Source: a virus (taxonomy: Duplodnaviria > Caudoviricetes). Taken from it: a stretch of DNA of 64,000 nt. The stretch's first letter is position 1. The number at the start of each line of letters is the position of its first letter. A model generated the notes under the pieces. It saw only the letters and a list, made by a program, of their open reading frames with translations. It ran no database searches and was not told the DNA's origin. The stretch spans positions 64,001 to 128,000 of the IMG/VR virus record IMGVR_UViG_3300028591_000098, one strand, 5' to 3'. This document shows, in pieces, positions 1,131-18,072 of the stretch. Position numbers and translations under genes: made by a program.

Positions 1131-1538
1131 TTATTTCATTATTTTTTCTAATATTTCAAAATCATCATTCAAAAGAATTTTAGTACCTTCATCCATTCCA
1201 TAAATTCTAATATGACCGATGTCAATATGATTTATAAAATTGGTTGAATAATCATATATTATTACAATTTCATCTATCTTTCTTATAGTATAAAATATTG
1301 TTCCAATTTCTACATCTGCATTGGTAATATTATCAACAATAAAATCGTTTTCAATAATATCATTACATAAATCAAAAACATGGTGAAATGCTGAACTATT
1401 ATTATTTTCCCAAGAAATTGTTACATTTGTTTTATCTATAGAAATATTTCCACCAACATTAGAAATATAAAATTTCCAATTATTTTTAATATCATCCAAT
1501 TTCCAATCTGGTAAATTTTTAAGAACTATATATTTCAT
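1131..1538 (-). CDS. hypothetical protein
   Basis: ORF track; first gene after the promoter motif. Confidence 0.7.
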   Translation of the reverse strand: MKYIVLKNLPDWKLDDIKNNWKFYISNVGGNISIDKTNVTISWENNNSSAFHHVFDLCNDIIENDFIVDNITNADVEIGTIFYTIRKIDEIVIIYDYSTNFINHIDIGHIRIYGMDEGTKILLNDDFEILEKIMK

Positions 1539-1562
1539 ATTTATTATTTATTTTACATATTA

Positions 1563-1591
1563 AATATAGAAATAAATTCAAAAAATTCAAA
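1563..1591 (-). promoter_or_regulatory. candidate early promoter TTTGAA-N16-18-TATATT
   Basis: TTTGAAT-16 nt-TATATT; the motif recurs ahead of several accessory operons. Confidence 0.65.
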
Positions 1592-1624
1592 TATAATATG
1601 TATTTCTTACATATAATGTAATAT

Positions 1625-1653
1625 AAAAGAGCACCAAATTAATGATGCTCTTT
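1625..1653 (-). terminator. intrinsic terminator
   Basis: AAAGAGCA...TGCTCTTT inverted repeat just downstream of 1660..2484. Confidence 0.6.
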
Positions 1654-1659
1654 AATATT

Positions 1660-2484
1660 TCATACTTCTTTTAATATTGACATTAATTTATATTCTATGA
1701 AATCACCGAAATCATAATGATCAATAACTTTCTTTACTCGGCAAAGATATTTCTTTGTTTTATCGAAATTGATACAATGATCATAAATATTTAATTTCAA
1801 ATAATCATCACCTTTAAATTTAATGTTTCCTGGGTTACATAACAATTCTCCAGATACTTCAACTTCTTCACAATCAAGAAGACTATCAGTACCAATAATA
1901 ACAGCTACATCTTGCCAATTCTTACCGTGAATCCAAGCTTCTGTTTTTTCAAATTCATCATCAGCAATTTCTTGCTCTTTATAATCAGGAAAATATTCAT
2001 TTATTTTATTGATAATATCACAATGCATATCAGCAAATGTGAAACTTGGCTCATTATTAGGTCTATATTGCCCATCAGAATAATATGCTTCATGATAATA
2101 TAATGGCAAAACATTTTCATTTGGCCTTACTAAAAGCTCATTAAAATATTCACTTTCAACATTTGCAATAATATTTCTATAATGAAGAATGATAGCATCA
2201 TTCATATTTAATCCTTCATGATAATACCATTCATCACGTCTTATAATATTATTTACTTCCTGCCAGAAGTATGTTAAATTTAGTTGATTCTTATATGGAA
2301 AATTCTCATCTTCTCGAAGTGAATCCATGCGATGCATACACCAATCTACAACATCATTTTTAGACCACAATGACCACCCATCGGCATTAATACAATGTAT
2401 CATATCCATCCACATATTCTTAACACTACCATCACGATGTTTATACCATCCCTTACAATAAAGAGCTACATTTCCAAATCTCAT
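1660..2484 (-). CDS. hypothetical protein
   Basis: ORF track, 274 aa. Confidence 0.75.
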   Translation of the reverse strand: MRFGNVALYCKGWYKHRDGSVKNMWMDMIHCINADGWSLWSKNDVVDWCMHRMDSLREDENFPYKNQLNLTYFWQEVNNIIRRDEWYYHEGLNMNDAIILHYRNIIANVESEYFNELLVRPNENVLPLYYHEAYYSDGQYRPNNEPSFTFADMHCDIINKINEYFPDYKEQEIADDEFEKTEAWIHGKNWQDVAVIIGTDSLLDCEEVEVSGELLCNPGNIKFKGDDYLKLNIYDHCINFDKTKKYLCRVKKVIDHYDFGDFIEYKLMSILKEV

Positions 2485-2518
2485 ATTAAAAATTATTTTA
2501 TATTAAAAAATATGTTTA

Positions 2519-2761
2519 TTATTTTTTACACTTACTACATATTGGACTATGATCCAAATCAGAACCTATACCATAATAAGTTTGCCATCTATGAAATAAA
2601 AAATCATGTCCTTCAATTACAATCTTTTCATACTTTACATCTCTTATTGTAATATATTCAACTCCTTCATATTTAACATTAGAAACTTTTGATGGCACAC
2701 TACTATTATCACAAGAAGTAAAAATCAATGTTCCAATAACAAACAAAAGTAATTTTTTCAT
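2519..2761 (-). CDS. small lipoprotein
   Basis: From the internal ATG: MKKLLLFVIGTLIFTSC|D, a signal peptide II with lipobox. Confidence 0.7.
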   Translation of the reverse strand: MKKLLLFVIGTLIFTSCDNSSVPSKVSNVKYEGVEYITIRDVKYEKIVIEGHDFLFHRWQTYYGIGSDLDHSPICSKCKK

Positions 2762-2762
2762 A

Positions 2763-3095
2763 TTAAATTTCATTTTTAAATTGTTCATACATATCTTCAT
2801 CCATTAAAAGAATAACATCGGCTACAAGCTTTTCATTCTTAAAGAAGTTATTAATATTTTCAACAGTTTCTGGTGTAGCTGAACCTTCATAAAGATAATC
2901 ACTAGAATCAATTCGTTGTATAATTCCGGCGAGATTTGTTTCTCCATTATGAAAATATTCAAAAATCATATCTCGAAGATATTCTTTACGCTCTTCAAAA
3001 GTTGAAGAAGCAACCTCCCAAAAATCAAAACAATCTTCGTTTATCAATTCTCCAAGAATTTGAAATGCTTTATTAAGTGATTCTGTACTTGTCAT
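2763..3095 (-). CDS. hypothetical protein
   Basis: ORF track. Confidence 0.7.
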   Translation of the reverse strand: MTSTESLNKAFQILGELINEDCFDFWEVASSTFEERKEYLRDMIFEYFHNGETNLAGIIQRIDSSDYLYEGSATPETVENINNFFKNEKLVADVILLMDEDMYEQFKNEI

Positions 3096-3214
3096 ATTAT
3101 TTATTTTATATATATAATGAAATTTCTTTGTTTAAACAAATCATTTCATAATGATTATGTTTTACAAATATATACATCTTTATGATGTAAATTTATATAT
3201 TAAAATACATATAT

Positions 3215-3243
3215 AATATAGAAATTCTTGTAAAAAATTCAAA
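3215..3243 (-). promoter_or_regulatory. candidate early promoter
   Basis: TTTGAAT-16 nt-TATATT. Confidence 0.6.
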
Positions 3244-3292
3244 CTATATTTAAAAAATTATAGGAATAATATAAAACAAATAAAATATGAAA

Positions 3293-3469
3293 TTATTTAT
3301 TTAATGCCACATAAATAAAACAAAATATGGTCCAAACTAATGAAGGTAAAAAAAACGTAAAAAATTTCAAATCATAACCATTTTTACCTAAATGATAACC
3401 ACAAATTATTGATACACCTAACATTGAAATAAATGTAAGTATAAAACAAACTAAATAAAACTTATTCAT
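3293..3469 (-). CDS. 58-aa membrane protein with two hydrophobic helices
   Basis: Own translation MNKFYLVCFILTFISMLGVSIICGYHLGKNGYDLKFFTFFLPSLVWTIFCFIYVALNK; starts 1 nt after the upstream stop. Confidence 0.65.
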   Translation of the reverse strand: MNKFYLVCFILTFISMLGVSIICGYHLGKNGYDLKFFTFFLPSLVWTIFCFIYVALNK

Positions 3470-3470
3470 A

Positions 3471-3812
3471 TTATCTATTTTTTGATTTTAAATATTTTCC
3501 AAACTTACGATTCCAAAAATTTTCAGATGTACCGGCAGATTTACGACCAAAATATGGATCATTAACATAAAAATCTTTATCTTCTTTCTTAATCAAATAT
3601 GTACCATCAGTTGGTTCACACAAAGAATTATGAATTGGTACTTCAGCAACTGGAATAAGATCTGCAACAGTATCAATATCATTATTTGCTATAAGGTTAC
3701 GAAGTGAATGACGATTCTTTGCACGGCATTTACGATTCATATTGCGATAATACTCAGTATTAGAACCAGTACAAATTCCGCACTTTACAGCTTTACGATA
3801 AGTTCTTGACAT
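3471..3812 (-). CDS. basic hypothetical protein
   Basis: ORF track; R/K-rich N-terminus. Confidence 0.7.
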   Translation of the reverse strand: MSRTYRKAVKCGICTGSNTEYYRNMNRKCRAKNRHSLRNLIANNDIDTVADLIPVAEVPIHNSLCEPTDGTYLIKKEDKDFYVNDPYFGRKSAGTSENFWNRKFGKYLKSKNR

Positions 3813-3817
3813 ATTAT

Positions 3818-3958
3818 TTATGCTTTAATTTTATTAGTGTATATTCGAAATCCATCTTGTAATATCAAAACAAATTGATGAAATGGAGAAGTAATTATTC
3901 GTTTAACACAACTATCATCAATAGTCATATAATTACCATATTGTGAAATATATTGCAT
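3818..3958 (-). CDS. 46-aa hypothetical protein
   Basis: Own translation MQYISQYGNY...; fills the operon gap. Confidence 0.5.
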   Translation of the reverse strand: MQYISQYGNYMTIDDSCVKRIITSPFHQFVLILQDGFRIYTNKIKA

Positions 3959-3960
3959 AA

Positions 3961-4239
3961 TTATTTATTCATTAATTTAAGAAGTTTCTTTTTAACAATT
4001 GGCTGATCTATCTTTTCACGAAAGACAAGTGAAACAACCTTATCAATATCTTCACCATTTTCAACAGCATCAATCATTGCATCGATATAATCATCAAATC
4101 TATCAAAGTCATATTTCATTGAGCCATCTTCAAAAAATATGAAATTCTTACATCTTTCTTTAATACGTTTACCATATTTGGCATCCATATATTCTTCCCA
4201 AGTATTATAAAAACTTCTTGCTGTATACATATTATTCAT
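3961..4239 (-). CDS. hypothetical protein
   Basis: ORF track. Confidence 0.7.
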   Translation of the reverse strand: MNNMYTARSFYNTWEEYMDAKYGKRIKERCKNFIFFEDGSMKYDFDRFDDYIDAMIDAVENGEDIDKVVSLVFREKIDQPIVKKKLLKLMNK

Positions 4240-4255
4240 ATTTATTTACATATAC

Positions 4256-4284
4256 AATATAGAAACAAATATGAAAAATTCAAA
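4256..4284 (-). promoter_or_regulatory. candidate early promoter
   Basis: TTTGAAT-16 nt-TATATT, 17 nt upstream of 4239. Confidence 0.65.
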
Positions 4285-4365
4285 TATAATTTAATTTTCT
4301 AAAGAAAATAAATGAATTTAGAATATAATTTAATTTTGTCAAATTAAATAATAAATAATATAAAA

Positions 4366-5646
4366 TTATTTTGCCCAATCAGGAATATATACATCTTCAC
4401 ACATTTCTAATAGGTGAAGTTTTTCATATACATGTGCAGTTTCATATGGATCTCCTTTAATCCATTTAGAATCATCTAATCCCAATTCTTCTAATCTATT
4501 ATGTATATCTTCATCATAAAATATTGAAGCTAATCTAACTCTTCTTTGAATATCGGAAATATTTCCTTGTCCATCTGAATCTGGAATTTCATTTTTATAT
4601 TGTGAATTATTACCATCAAATCGTTGAGCATAACAACAAATATGTATATGTGTAAATCGTGTTTTAAAAAATGTCCTAATTAATAATTCATAATCATCTG
4701 CTATACGCATATGTTGATTATGTCCTCCAATACTAAAATAAAGATTACGTTCCCAACATCTAAAATGATTAGGTACTCCAACGATATGTCTTATGGTTGC
4801 GTTGTTTATTGGACCTGATGAATCAGTTCTAATTGTTGTATTATCTGGTGTTTTTGATTGATAAGAATATCCATATCCTAATCCCCATGTATAATCTGGA
4901 CCAAATGCACATTCAGTAACATTATCATATTGATCTATTGTTGTATTATCTGAATATATAAATTTATTTTCTGGATATGCTTCAATTGCTTCATTAATTA
5001 CTTCTAAACACCAATAATTTAACATATCGTCATGATCTAATTCTATTAACCATCTTCCTTTAGACATACAACTAGCTCTCCATTTGGTTAGTCCTATATT
5101 TCCATTGGTTGGTTCAATTCTAAAATATTTTAATCTTACATCATATTGTTTATATATATAATTTCTAACATTAGTTAATTCTTCTGGGGAATCATCTAAT
5201 AATATCCATTCCCAATCATTAACTCTTTGATTACATAATGAATCATAACATTTTTTAAAATATTCTAAATTAGTATTATATAAAGATGTTATAAAAGAAA
5301 ATTTAGGAGTATTTGAATAAGATAATATTGATTTATTTATTTTTAAAGCCAAATCAATTCCATAATTATTATTTGCATCATAATAGTAAACTATTCTTTT
5401 ATAATAATCTGGAAGTAAATCAATATTATGTAATTCAGGTTTTTTGTTTTCAAATTGGACTACTATTGCATCCACTTCATTGTTATTTAATATAATATTT
5501 ATCAAATTATCATCATTTGGTATATTTATTATATCAAAATTTCTTTTTTCAAAACTATAATAAGTATCAAATGTTAATGTTATATTTTCATTATCTGTTA
5601 TTCTTATAACTTTATATGATGAATTTTTCGTAAAATTTATCTTCAT
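4366..5646 (-). CDS. glycosyltransferase family 2
   Basis: FSFITSLYNT, WEWILLDDSP, ELDHDD (DxD) and ADDYEL motifs of the GT-A fold. Confidence 0.85.
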   Translation of the reverse strand: MKINFTKNSSYKVIRITDNENITLTFDTYYSFEKRNFDIINIPNDDNLINIILNNNEVDAIVVQFENKKPELHNIDLLPDYYKRIVYYYDANNNYGIDLALKINKSILSYSNTPKFSFITSLYNTNLEYFKKCYDSLCNQRVNDWEWILLDDSPEELTNVRNYIYKQYDVRLKYFRIEPTNGNIGLTKWRASCMSKGRWLIELDHDDMLNYWCLEVINEAIEAYPENKFIYSDNTTIDQYDNVTECAFGPDYTWGLGYGYSYQSKTPDNTTIRTDSSGPINNATIRHIVGVPNHFRCWERNLYFSIGGHNQHMRIADDYELLIRTFFKTRFTHIHICCYAQRFDGNNSQYKNEIPDSDGQGNISDIQRRVRLASIFYDEDIHNRLEELGLDDSKWIKGDPYETAHVYEKLHLLEMCEDVYIPDWAK

Positions 5647-13178: not shown

Positions 13179-13212
13179 AAAAAAATGACCAACTCTTACG
13201 AGCCAGTCATTT
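13179..13212 (-). terminator. intrinsic terminator after the OmpA gene
   Basis: AAATGAC...GTCATTT stem followed by a T-run on the minus strand. Confidence 0.6.
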
Positions 13213-14473: not shown

Positions 14474-15004
14474 TTAAAATATACGTGATAATTTATCTAC
14501 TTCTTTTAATGCAGTAGGTATTCTATATTTACCATGCATTTTAAATACATGCCAAGGAGCAACAATTGGTGCAGCTGTTGTTTGAACATATAATGGTTTT
14601 TTTGATTTACCTCTAAATACTTTACTAGATATTTTGTCACAATCACCAAAATTATTTTTTGCTACACCATATACAATTTTACTATGTCCATATTTAATTA
14701 AATAATTATGTAAATGATCACCTAATCCGCCCCATTCTTTATCCCCAACTTTTAAAGTAATATAACCATCTACAATAACTGCATGAATTTTGTCCCATAA
14801 TTCTAATTGTTCTTTAATAAATTTTTTAAGTATTTTCTTTATACCTGGAAGTTCCCTTTTATAAAACTCTCCTGGAACATAATCAAAAGTTACTTTGGTA
14901 TATATTGTATCTGAATAAATAATTTTATCATCTTCTAATTTAAATACAACCAATGATGTATTACATACATTATCTTTATAATAAGAATCTAATGCTAAAA
15001 ACAT
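14474..15004 (-). CDS. endonuclease V family protein
   Basis: LALDSYY, YVPGEFYKRELP, VDGY, GVAKN, RG.SKKPLYV and RIPT motifs. Confidence 0.85.
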   Translation of the reverse strand: MFLALDSYYKDNVCNTSLVVFKLEDDKIIYSDTIYTKVTFDYVPGEFYKRELPGIKKILKKFIKEQLELWDKIHAVIVDGYITLKVGDKEWGGLGDHLHNYLIKYGHSKIVYGVAKNNFGDCDKISSKVFRGKSKKPLYVQTTAAPIVAPWHVFKMHGKYRIPTALKEVDKLSRIF

Positions 15005-15006
15005 AA

Positions 15007-15234
15007 TTATATTTTATCAATTTTTTTAAAATATGCATCTGGATGATTTTTCTTAAATTCAGTATCTTTTATAACACCTTTAGATAGACACATACAATAT
15101 TCGATATTATTTAAATCATCTGCTAGTCTATCACAATCATCAGATAACTCACAACAATTACATGGATTTTTATCATTAACTCCCCAATCATCCAAATAAT
15201 AACCATTATATAACCTATTATTATCAATTTGCAT
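15007..15234 (-). CDS. Cys-rich hypothetical protein
   Basis: ORF track; CxxC and further Cys residues. Confidence 0.6.
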   Translation of the reverse strand: MQIDNNRLYNGYYLDDWGVNDKNPCNCCELSDDCDRLADDLNNIEYCMCLSKGVIKDTEFKKNHPDAYFKKIDKI

Positions 15235-15436
15235 AATTTTTTTTCCTATTATTTTTACTTTTTAATGATTGCTCATAAATTTTAGGTGAAGAATTATAAT
15301 TTTTAGGTATATTATTCGGTATTTTATATTTTTGAATTCCTCTATATTCTTGACCTTTAATAATCATCAATAATTCATTAACCTCTTTTACTGTTAAATT
15401 AACTAATTCTTCAGAAATTTCTTGAATACTACTCAT
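15224..15436 (-). CDS. ribosomal protein bL12 (L7/L12) N-terminal domain fused to a basic tail
   Basis: MSSIQEISEELVNLTVKEVNEL...K..EY.GI matches the Bacteroidota bL12 N-terminus as recalled (EELVNLTVKEVNELA..LK.EYGI); no hinge or C-terminal domain. Confidence 0.8.
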   Translation of the reverse strand: MSSIQEISEELVNLTVKEVNELLMIIKGQEYRGIQKYKIPNNIPKNYNSSPKIYEQSLKSKNNRKKNYAN

Positions 15437-15437
15437 A

Positions 15438-15785
15438 TTAAATTATTAAATGTGTTATTTTAATATTCCTGATTTTACCATTTTTTATTATTGGTTGATA
15501 ATCCATTTTCCACATCGTATTAATATGTGAATTTATAAATCTAAGTTTATTATCATCTATAAGACGACGAATATCATTACCTTCAAATATCCAATTTTGG
15601 TCAACCCATATTTTAAACCATTCTTGAATACAATCTTTCAAACATTTATGTAACAAAACATTTTCTGCAAAAATCCAATATAAATTTCGTTTCTGTTCAA
15701 ATTCTACATAGACATGGCGAAATTTTTTATTATCTTTTGTATATAATTCAAATAAAATTTCTGATTTTTTCCAAAATAAACTCAT
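15438..15785 (-). CDS. hypothetical protein
   Basis: ORF track. Confidence 0.65.
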   Translation of the reverse strand: MSLFWKKSEILFELYTKDNKKFRHVYVEFEQKRNLYWIFAENVLLHKCLKDCIQEWFKIWVDQNWIFEGNDIRRLIDDNKLRFINSHINTMWKMDYQPIIKNGKIRNIKITHLII

Positions 15786-16937: not shown

Positions 16938-16965
16938 AAAAAAGGAGTAACTTAAATTACTCCTT
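16938..16965 (-). terminator. intrinsic terminator
   Basis: AAGGAGTAA...TTACTCCTT stem plus T-run on the minus strand. Confidence 0.7.
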
Positions 16966-17295: not shown

Positions 17296-18072
17296 TTAAT
17301 GTTTAATATCTTGACTACCAAAACCTTTATCACCTCTTTGTGAATTTGACATTACACTATTATATGTTTCTTCATCAGCATCAACATATTCATCATGGAA
17401 TATAGGAATAAGCATCATTTGTGTTAATTTATCTCCACAATAAACAATATTTTCTTTACTATGTTCTAATACTTCTTTAGTATAAGATACTGAAAGATGT
17501 ACAAATCCTGAATAATCCTCATCCACAAGACATGCACGTACATCCCAACCTTTATTTCCCATTCCTGATTTATTAACATATAAACCGGCAACACCAATTC
17601 CAAGTTTTCTTAAAAGAGATACTATATCTTGATCATTTTTATCTGACAAAACAGTATCTAATGCTATCTTAATACCAGAATTAATAAATAAAGTATCATT
17701 AGGACAAACTTTAATACCTACTTTATTATTTTCTTTATCATAAACTATAAATTCATCTACAAAACTATAAACACCTTGAATTAATGAATACTGTTTTGTT
17801 TCTTCTAAAATTGGATTATAAAAACCTAAAAATAAATGTATTAAATTAGGAATTTGATAATCAGGAATTTCTGGACGTAGTTCTTTTAATACAATATTAA
17901 AATATTCTATTAATTTTTGAATATCTTCTGTTGATTTCTTATAAGATTTTTCAAAAGCAATTAAAGCTTTACTAATTTGTTCATCTGTTTTTAAATTTGG
18001 AATATAATAATCAGAACCTGCAGATGTAAAACTGTTTGTTGGTTTTATACCAAATGCATTGTAACATTTCAT
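17296..18072 (-). CDS. dut: trimeric dUTPase with a large insertion
   Basis: Motifs SAGSDY, KSG, LVDEDYSG, KLTQM and RGDKGFGS. Confidence 0.85.
   Translation of the reverse strand: MKCYNAFGIKPTNSFTSAGSDYYIPNLKTDEQISKALIAFEKSYKKSTEDIQKLIEYFNIVLKELRPEIPDYQIPNLIHLFLGFYNPILEETKQYSLIQGVYSFVDEFIVYDKENNKVGIKVCPNDTLFINSGIKIALDTVLSDKNDQDIVSLLRKLGIGVAGLYVNKSGMGNKGWDVRACLVDEDYSGFVHLSVSYTKEVLEHSKENIVYCGDKLTQMMLIPIFHDEYVDADEETYNSVMSNSQRGDKGFGSQDIKH

Follow-up and report, generated by a model that had tools for sequence, protein, structure and literature searches.

A Small Phage Protein Family with a bL12-like N-Terminal Hairpin and a Conserved Basic Tail: A Candidate Anchor on the Host Ribosomal Stalk

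Introduction

The locus considered here raises the question of what a phage could do with the N-terminal end of the ribosomal stalk protein bL12 alone. In bacteria, that domain forms the bL12 dimer and attaches to 10-residue segments of the helix at the C-terminus of uL10, and a positively charged site, located on two helices of the C-terminal domain, serves to recruit IF2, EF-Tu, EF-G and RF3 (PMC6753160, PMC4592705, PMC1635324, PMC3299993). Cells whose ribosomes carry one bL12 dimer instead of two grow at half the rate, and those ribosomes are slower in initiation and elongation (PMC3299993).

A first-pass annotation of this DNA, made from its letters alone, had described a bL12 N-terminal domain with a replaced tail and noted that some phages carry full bL12 genes. 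Phage bL12 genes have indeed been published, but they were identified with the Ribosomal_L12 model, which is that of the C-terminal domain, and the match is often embedded in a larger protein (Mizuno et al. 2019, PMC6375957). The phage bL12 domain carries the residues that contact uL11, EF-G and EF-Tu; one phage bL12 protein was seen in ribosome fractions by mass spectrometry, and a tagged version gave no affinity purification of ribosomes (PMC6375957). An entry "L7/L12" is also listed, without domain detail, among the genes of huge phages (Al-Shayeb et al. 2020, PMC7162821). Our search of the literature, which covered open-access text, found no description of a bL12 family consisting of the anchor only.

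The Gene and Its Surroundings

The window, meaning the whole stretch of 64,000 nucleotides that was analysed, is part of a 163,395-bp IMG/VR virus record, from a large gut or rumen phage, of 25% GC with a CheckV completeness estimate of 64%. The features needed below are as follows.

15224..15436, minus strand: open reading frame with only the bL12 N-terminal domain and a new tail; 70 aa plus TGA stop, ATG start (ORF list and sequence)
15350..15436, minus strand: bL12-like two-helix hairpin, residues 1–29 (PF16320, identity to Prevotella bL12, AlphaFold2, family conservation, dN/dS)
15290..15349, minus strand: variable, probably flexible linker, residues 30–49 (low pLDDT, no family consensus)
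15227..15289, minus strand: motif (S/T)PKxYG, here SPKIYE, and predicted basic helix, residues 50–70 (34-sequence conservation, AlphaFold2)
15438..15785, minus strand: upstream neighbour, 115 aa, no function assigned (ORF list, Pfam, PHROGs)
15007..15234, minus strand: downstream neighbour, 75 aa, Cys-rich, no Pfam or PHROG family (ORF list, Pfam, PHROGs)

The bL12-like gene belongs to a tight run of small minus-strand genes that extends from about 16874 to 14474. A single nucleotide separates its ATG from the stop codon of the upstream gene (15438–15440), and the ATG of the downstream gene (15232–15234) overlaps its 3' end by 11 nt. The run, together with an OmpA-like gene, is flanked by terminator-like hairpins at 16942–16965 (minus) and 13183–13212 (minus), which suggests that these two mark the boundaries of a transcription unit, the number of such hairpins exceeding the shuffle mean by no more than about 1 sd. 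Scans for promoters of the sigma-70 type and for the Bacteroides −33/−7 pattern gave matches that were not above chance. The earlier description of a tightly packed early-type operon thus holds for the packing, the small minus-strand genes being closely spaced and flanked by the two terminator-like hairpins, and the word "early" is dropped.

The neighbours in the locus include genes resembling DUF4406/nucleoside deoxyribosyltransferase, dUTPase and endonuclease V. The endonuclease-V-like protein (14474–15004, minus, 176 aa) matches the N-terminal part of its profile only. The dUTPase-like protein (17296–18072, minus, 258 aa) has its dUTPase match within the C-terminal 110 residues, and about 145 N-terminal residues are without assignment. 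The upstream 115-aa neighbour is 97% identical in a close relative, L002, and is absent from the other gene contexts compared. The downstream 75-aa protein has a cysteine cluster, CNCC...C...C.C, and is 89% identical over a 53-aa stretch in L002.

Family and Distribution

A word-indexed search of a 5.8-billion-protein collection returned the exact window protein and seven homologues of 62–67 aa. Searched with a profile, 1.84 billion representatives yielded 525 proteins at E ≤ 0.001; those matching the profile over its full length are all of 60–74 aa, and the remainder match positions 1–34 only and are bacterial bL12 N-termini. Filtering the profile matches for the tail motif gave 34 clusters at the 50%-identity level. 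The family therefore has at least 34 clusters of 60–74 aa with one layout, namely the hairpin, a linker of 14–28 aa, (S/T)PKxYG and a K/R-rich helix. Publicly, its members are annotated as "hypothetical" and once, automatically, as "ribosomal protein L7/L12". PHROGs holds no family for the window protein, and the ESM Atlas yielded nothing beyond its own viral cluster except unrelated entries.

Relatives are carried by IMG/VR phage contigs that are 111.7, 122.6, 129.7, 158.3 and 376.3 kb long, of which four are rated 98–100% complete. The GC content of the loci ranges over 24–56%, and that of the gene itself (0.20–0.53) moves in step with its own phage. The window phage has a close relative in L002, where the neighbouring proteins are 77–97% identical (one weak match of 35% aside) and the bL12-like protein is 82% identical. 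L003, L004, L009 and L010 have few genes in common with the window phage, and the high-GC phages L008, L011 and L012 almost none. The bL12-like gene is found in at least five distinct gene neighbourhoods, so no conserved partner gene is evident.

One candidate partner was considered. In L004 (4303–5004), L009 (8851–9597) and L010 (9309–10004), a gene of 231–248 aa with a weak, sub-cut-off match to dual-specificity phosphatases (21–22 bits) lies upstream. In L004 and L010 the last 4 nt of this gene are shared with the start of the bL12-like gene, and in L009 a gap of about 400 nt separates the two. Being upstream in these three loci and absent from the genome of the window, it was set aside as an obligatory neighbour. 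The same three loci have a conserved gene of about 50 aa on the 3' side of the bL12-like gene, and the genome of the window lacks the whole block. The conserved (S/T)P of the tail could be a phospho-site.

Protein databases contain many short entries with a bL12 N-terminus and an unrelated tail, which can be mistaken for truncated bL12 genes. Four such entries (P0085, P0039, P0116 and P0100; L093–L096) were rejected as independent captures. They lie on contigs of 0.5–1.4 kb, with P0085 and P0039 directly after rplJ, and their likeliest origin is an assembly error or a frameshift artefact. The sole match in INPHARED, MT836236, was likewise rejected as a phage relative. MT836236.1 (L001, locus 1458–4740) is labelled "Bacteriophage sp." in GenBank and comes from human faeces; the stretch is a Bacteroidales-type rplA-rplJ-rplL-rpoB arrangement, and the record, or its rplA-rpoB part, is probably bacterial rather than phage.

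Similarity of the Hairpin to the bL12 N-Terminal Domain

The Pfam model Ribosomal_L12_N (PF16320) matches residues 4–26 of the window protein with E = 0.0018 and 18.4 bits, under the gathering threshold of 25 bits. The same model matches 32 of the 34 family members at E ≤ 0.01, at best 5e-7. Residues 1–29 are identical at 19 of 29 positions (65%) to the bL12 of a rumen Prevotella (L016), including an unbroken stretch of 14 residues, EELVNLTVKEVNEL. When that bL12 is compared by tblastn to the 163-kb phage record, this gene is the single matching spot (E = 1.5e-6). In the opposite direction, the family profile recovers Bacteroidota bL12 N-termini from among 1.84 billion proteins at about 1e-8 to 1e-6, a profile match that is far beyond chance. 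The first-pass annotation had extended the N-terminal match over residues 1–35; it is strong over residues 1–27 or 1–29 and does not reach 35.

An AlphaFold2 model built on the family alignment places helices at residues 4–12 and 16–29 (pLDDT 90–94). These boundaries are those of the bL12 hairpin in an alignment with Thermotoga maritima, so that the likeness to bacterial bL12 (PF16320; T. maritima 1DD3/1DD4 and the uL10–NTD complex) consists of a homologous hairpin at residues 1–29 with matching helix ends. Searches that start from the structure are uninformative because a helical model of 70 residues holds too little information: Foldseek of the AlphaFold2 model against the PDB gave no match, and a wide VIA-align search gave generic coiled coils only (Z ≤ 3.2). 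The family profile run against PDB sequences gave spurious designed TIM barrels, and the T. maritima L7/L12 N-terminal domain only at E = 0.89.

The end of the host domain is less well kept. Most family members have an eroded DEYGIEP segment, the aromatic residue conserved at position 30 included, and in the window copy EYGIEP is only vestigial, as EYRGI within the linker. This erosion could weaken or change dimerisation or docking on uL10 and is the main caveat to assuming that docking is unchanged. A few members retain EYGIEPA(A), with which the host hinge begins, and these mark descent from a full bL12. By its sequence, the hairpin was probably derived from a Bacteroidota host gene.

Absence of the Factor-Binding Domain and of uL10

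The model of the bL12 C-terminal domain (PF00542, Ribosomal_L12) has no match in the window protein or anywhere in the 163-kb record, and nothing above the Pfam cut-off in the four relatives rated 98–100% complete. The uL10 model (PF00466) has no match in the 163-kb record and none above the cut-off in those same four relatives. The tblastn comparison with Prevotella bL12 found nothing in the record for the hinge or the C-terminal domain, and uL10 was likewise not found. In the comparison of the two Pfam models that the first-pass annotation had proposed, Ribosomal_L12_N is matched below its cut-off and Ribosomal_L12 is without a match, and the description of an architecture limited to the N-terminal domain is borne out. 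It had also considered that the missing domain might be encoded in another frame just downstream, and there is none there or elsewhere in the 163-kb record. The downstream 75-aa gene was specifically discarded as a source of the head, having no family match; tblastn with host bL12 finds only the N-terminal domain. The bL12-like gene sits among phage genes and outside any rplKAJL-rpoBC cluster.

Linker and Tail

After the hairpin, residues 30–49 are polar (N, K, Y, P, I) without an alanine run, so there is no Ala/Pro/Gly-rich hinge. AlphaFold2 assigns them no secondary structure (pLDDT about 58). Measured from position 29 to the motif, the linker is 14–28 aa across the family with a median of 18 and no consensus; the hinge of host bL12 is about 25 aa, a length of the same order.

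The tail that follows is conserved. In the 34-sequence alignment, P51, Y54 and G55 are each conserved at 90% or more, and the motif is equally conserved in phages of 24% and 55% GC. It is followed by an L-containing basic helix with K/R runs at its end, predicted at residues 51–69 in the window protein (pLDDT about 82), and the last 20 residues have a median of 7 K+R across the family. The window copy reads SPKIYE, with E replacing the conserved G, and has a slightly longer tail; its residues 30–70 have a pI of 10.1 with 10 K+R against 2 D+E, and the whole protein has a pI of 9.6 against 4.7 for host bL12. The motif occurs once in the genome. As judged by this pattern of conservation, the tail is functional. 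The first-pass annotation had the hinge and C-terminal domain replaced by a 35-aa basic tail; replacement and basic character stand, and the tail is better described as residues 30–70 and as carrying a family-wide motif and helix rather than being arbitrary.

Comparison by hhalign of a tail profile with uL10 and bL12 profiles gave nothing significant, and a weak alignment of KEYGI with DEYGIE (E = 0.077) was set aside as non-significant.

The differences from bacterial bL12 are thus that the phage protein lacks the Ala/Pro-rich hinge, the C-terminal factor-binding domain and the rplJ–rplL context, has EYGIEP eroded, and has gained a new linker, (S/T)PKxYG and a basic helix.

Selection and Host Tracking

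Over nine loci, the Nei–Gojobori dN/dS of the hairpin is 0.08–0.69 and mostly 0.1–0.5, and the remainder of the protein is near neutral overall (0.25–1.2) with the exception of the invariant motif; the values are rough, the sequences being very short, and dS is saturated between distant members. The first-pass annotation had asked whether relatives keep the same truncated architecture under purifying selection, and in the hairpin they do.

Across 77 Bacteroidota genomes, the bL12 N-terminal domain hardly varies. Family positions 8–22 have a mean identity of 87% to the Bacteroidota consensus, including the polar positions A8, E10, N13, K17 and N20, and the Bacteroidota-specific polar residues are retained at 76–97%, over a divergence in which tails and codon usage have become scrambled. 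Thermotoga bL12, which has the same fold, differs at these polar positions and is identical at only 7 of 15 over positions 8–22 (a manual count on the alignment). The constraint therefore exceeds what the fold requires. We read this, from the sequences, as constraint coming from a host partner, bL12 and/or the uL10 helix, and not from the fold alone. There are also consistent phage-specific changes, K5Q, A6E and T24M, in addition to the erosion of DEYGIEP. From the bL12 N-terminal domain, the host cannot be narrowed below Bacteroidota.

Proposed Function and Alternatives

The reading that we prefer, with a probability of roughly 45%, is that the phage protein is a stalk anchor derived from the host, which would form dimers on uL10, either of its own kind or together with host bL12, and tether the new basic helix near the factor-binding site. 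The dimer would take bL12 sites on uL10, and there would thereby be fewer factor-recruiting bL12 heads per ribosome. The flexible linker, of about hinge length, would hold the conserved basic amphipathic helix next to the GTPase-associated centre, where it might bind rRNA, tRNA or acidic surfaces of the translational GTPases (the G-domain, normally contacted by the bL12 head). Host translation would in this way be retuned during infection. A single-headed L7/L12 dimer reportedly supports protein synthesis, going by the title of a 1998 report by Oleinikov. When two copies of the phage protein were co-folded with residues 115–172 of Prevotella uL10 (alignment A2), the score was 0.08, with the mark at 0.32, a result that weighs neither for nor against docking.

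The first-pass annotation had suggested a dominant-negative or stalk-docking effector. A pure decoy leaves the P51/Y54/G55 motif and the basic helix unexplained, whereas an effector or adaptor tethered by the anchor would account for the conserved hairpin and the conserved tail alike. To us, the protein is better described as a modifier of the stalk than as a plain decoy.

The basic tail can equally well be taken to mean that the hairpin acts away from the ribosome and serves only to dimerise a small histone-like or regulator-like basic protein, which would contact DNA or RNA of phage or host through its K/R/Y-rich tail. The strong basicity (pI 10.1 for the tail, 9.6 for the protein), the eroded end of the host domain and the position of the gene among nucleotide-metabolism genes would all suit such a protein, and the (S/T)PK beside basic residues recalls SPKK-type motifs, which bind nucleic acid. 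We nevertheless consider it unlikely, since dimerisation needs only a hydrophobic core, yet the Bacteroidota-specific polar residues are kept at 76–97% in spite of saturated dS, and since the motif is (S/T)PKxYG rather than SPKK and is held equally at both extremes of GC content. Those polar residues fit equally well with a protein that acts off the ribosome, trapping new host bL12 in heterodimers, or free uL10, and so blocking the assembly of stalks on new ribosomes or disturbing the autoregulation of rplJ–rplL mRNA. The homology and the host tracking are the same evidence for such titration as for the stalk anchor, and the uL10–bL12 complex is a known repressor of rplJL translation (PMC10931766). 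Titration leaves the conserved tail motif and helix unexplained, and the phage protein would have to be made in stoichiometric quantity relative to a target that is among the most abundant proteins of the cell; we think its chances are low.

Much less credible is a decaying rplL fragment, which the first-pass annotation had named as fatal to its proposal, or a mis-called ORF, in either case without function. The protein is short, its Pfam score is below threshold and it has no PHROG family. Against this, at least 34 clusters are intact, with one architecture and one conserved tail motif, in phages of 112–376 kb and 24–56% GC and in at least five contexts, and the hairpin is under purifying selection. 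The family data, which are of sequences, have effectively refuted this alternative.

The stalk anchor can be taken a step further by supposing that phages of Bacteroidota re-equip the host stalk, keeping the bL12 anchor and swapping the head for a tethered basic helix, so that factors or tRNAs are recruited, excluded or re-weighted. This is speculative, and we give it little weight. One possibility within it is that termination is biased against read-through in a phage with its own UAG-reading tRNA. ARAGORN finds nine tRNA genes clustered at G000:C1:158655-163330, beyond the window, one of which has a CUA anticodon (called "Pyl", UAG-reading). This investment of the genome in translation is compatible with the stalk anchor and is not evidence for it.

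Phage genes derived from ribosomal proteins are already known, and the bL12 cases described so far all copy the factor-binding head. A conserved family with the anchor alone and a tail of its own would represent another strategy, namely entry into the multi-copy, exchangeable host stalk so as to alter what the stalk presents to translation factors. Because the stalk sets initiation and elongation rates (PMC3299993), such a protein could show viruses tuning host translation rather than shutting it off. The phage anchor could also be a natural tool for delivering peptides to the GTPase-associated centre. If the stalk were indeed re-equipped, the protein would be a virus-made, ribosome-resident specialisation subunit and not a simple inhibitor.

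Comparison with Related Systems

The closest precedent in design is the bL9 homologue of Mycobacterium phage 32HC, which retains the N-terminal domain that binds the ribosome and rRNA and has a non-homologous replacement for its C-terminal domain (PMC6375957). The present family has that design in common with it, a ribosome-binding N-terminal domain kept and a C-terminal domain swapped. It differs in that bL9 is another ribosomal protein at another site, binding 23S rRNA directly, and in that the 32HC case is from a single cultivated phage with no conserved replacement motif described.

The archaeal aP1 and eukaryotic P1/P2 stalk proteins have an analogous layout, with an N-terminal dimerisation domain on the helix of uL10/P0, a flexible linker and a short conserved working peptide at the C-terminus. 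There is no sequence homology, and the P-protein tail is acidic and hydrophobic and binds translational GTPases, whereas the phage tail is basic (pI 10.1). A re-equipped stalk, if true, would be the bacterial-virus counterpart of the P-protein design.

The published phage proteins with a bL12 domain likewise come from phage genes taken from host stalk bL12; these genes occur in a variety of gene contexts, and an action on host ribosomes is supposed. They keep the head (PF00542), whereas the present family keeps the opposite end, the anchor, without the head. The only trace resembling the bL12 C-terminal domain in this record and the four relatives rated 98–100% complete comes from the 376-kb phage, as a weak match within a 707-aa ORF (L097, G002:C1:38357-38515; 13.9 bits, E = 0.023). 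It may be an embedded copy of the head of the published type, in which case this genome would have both a head copy and an anchor-only gene.
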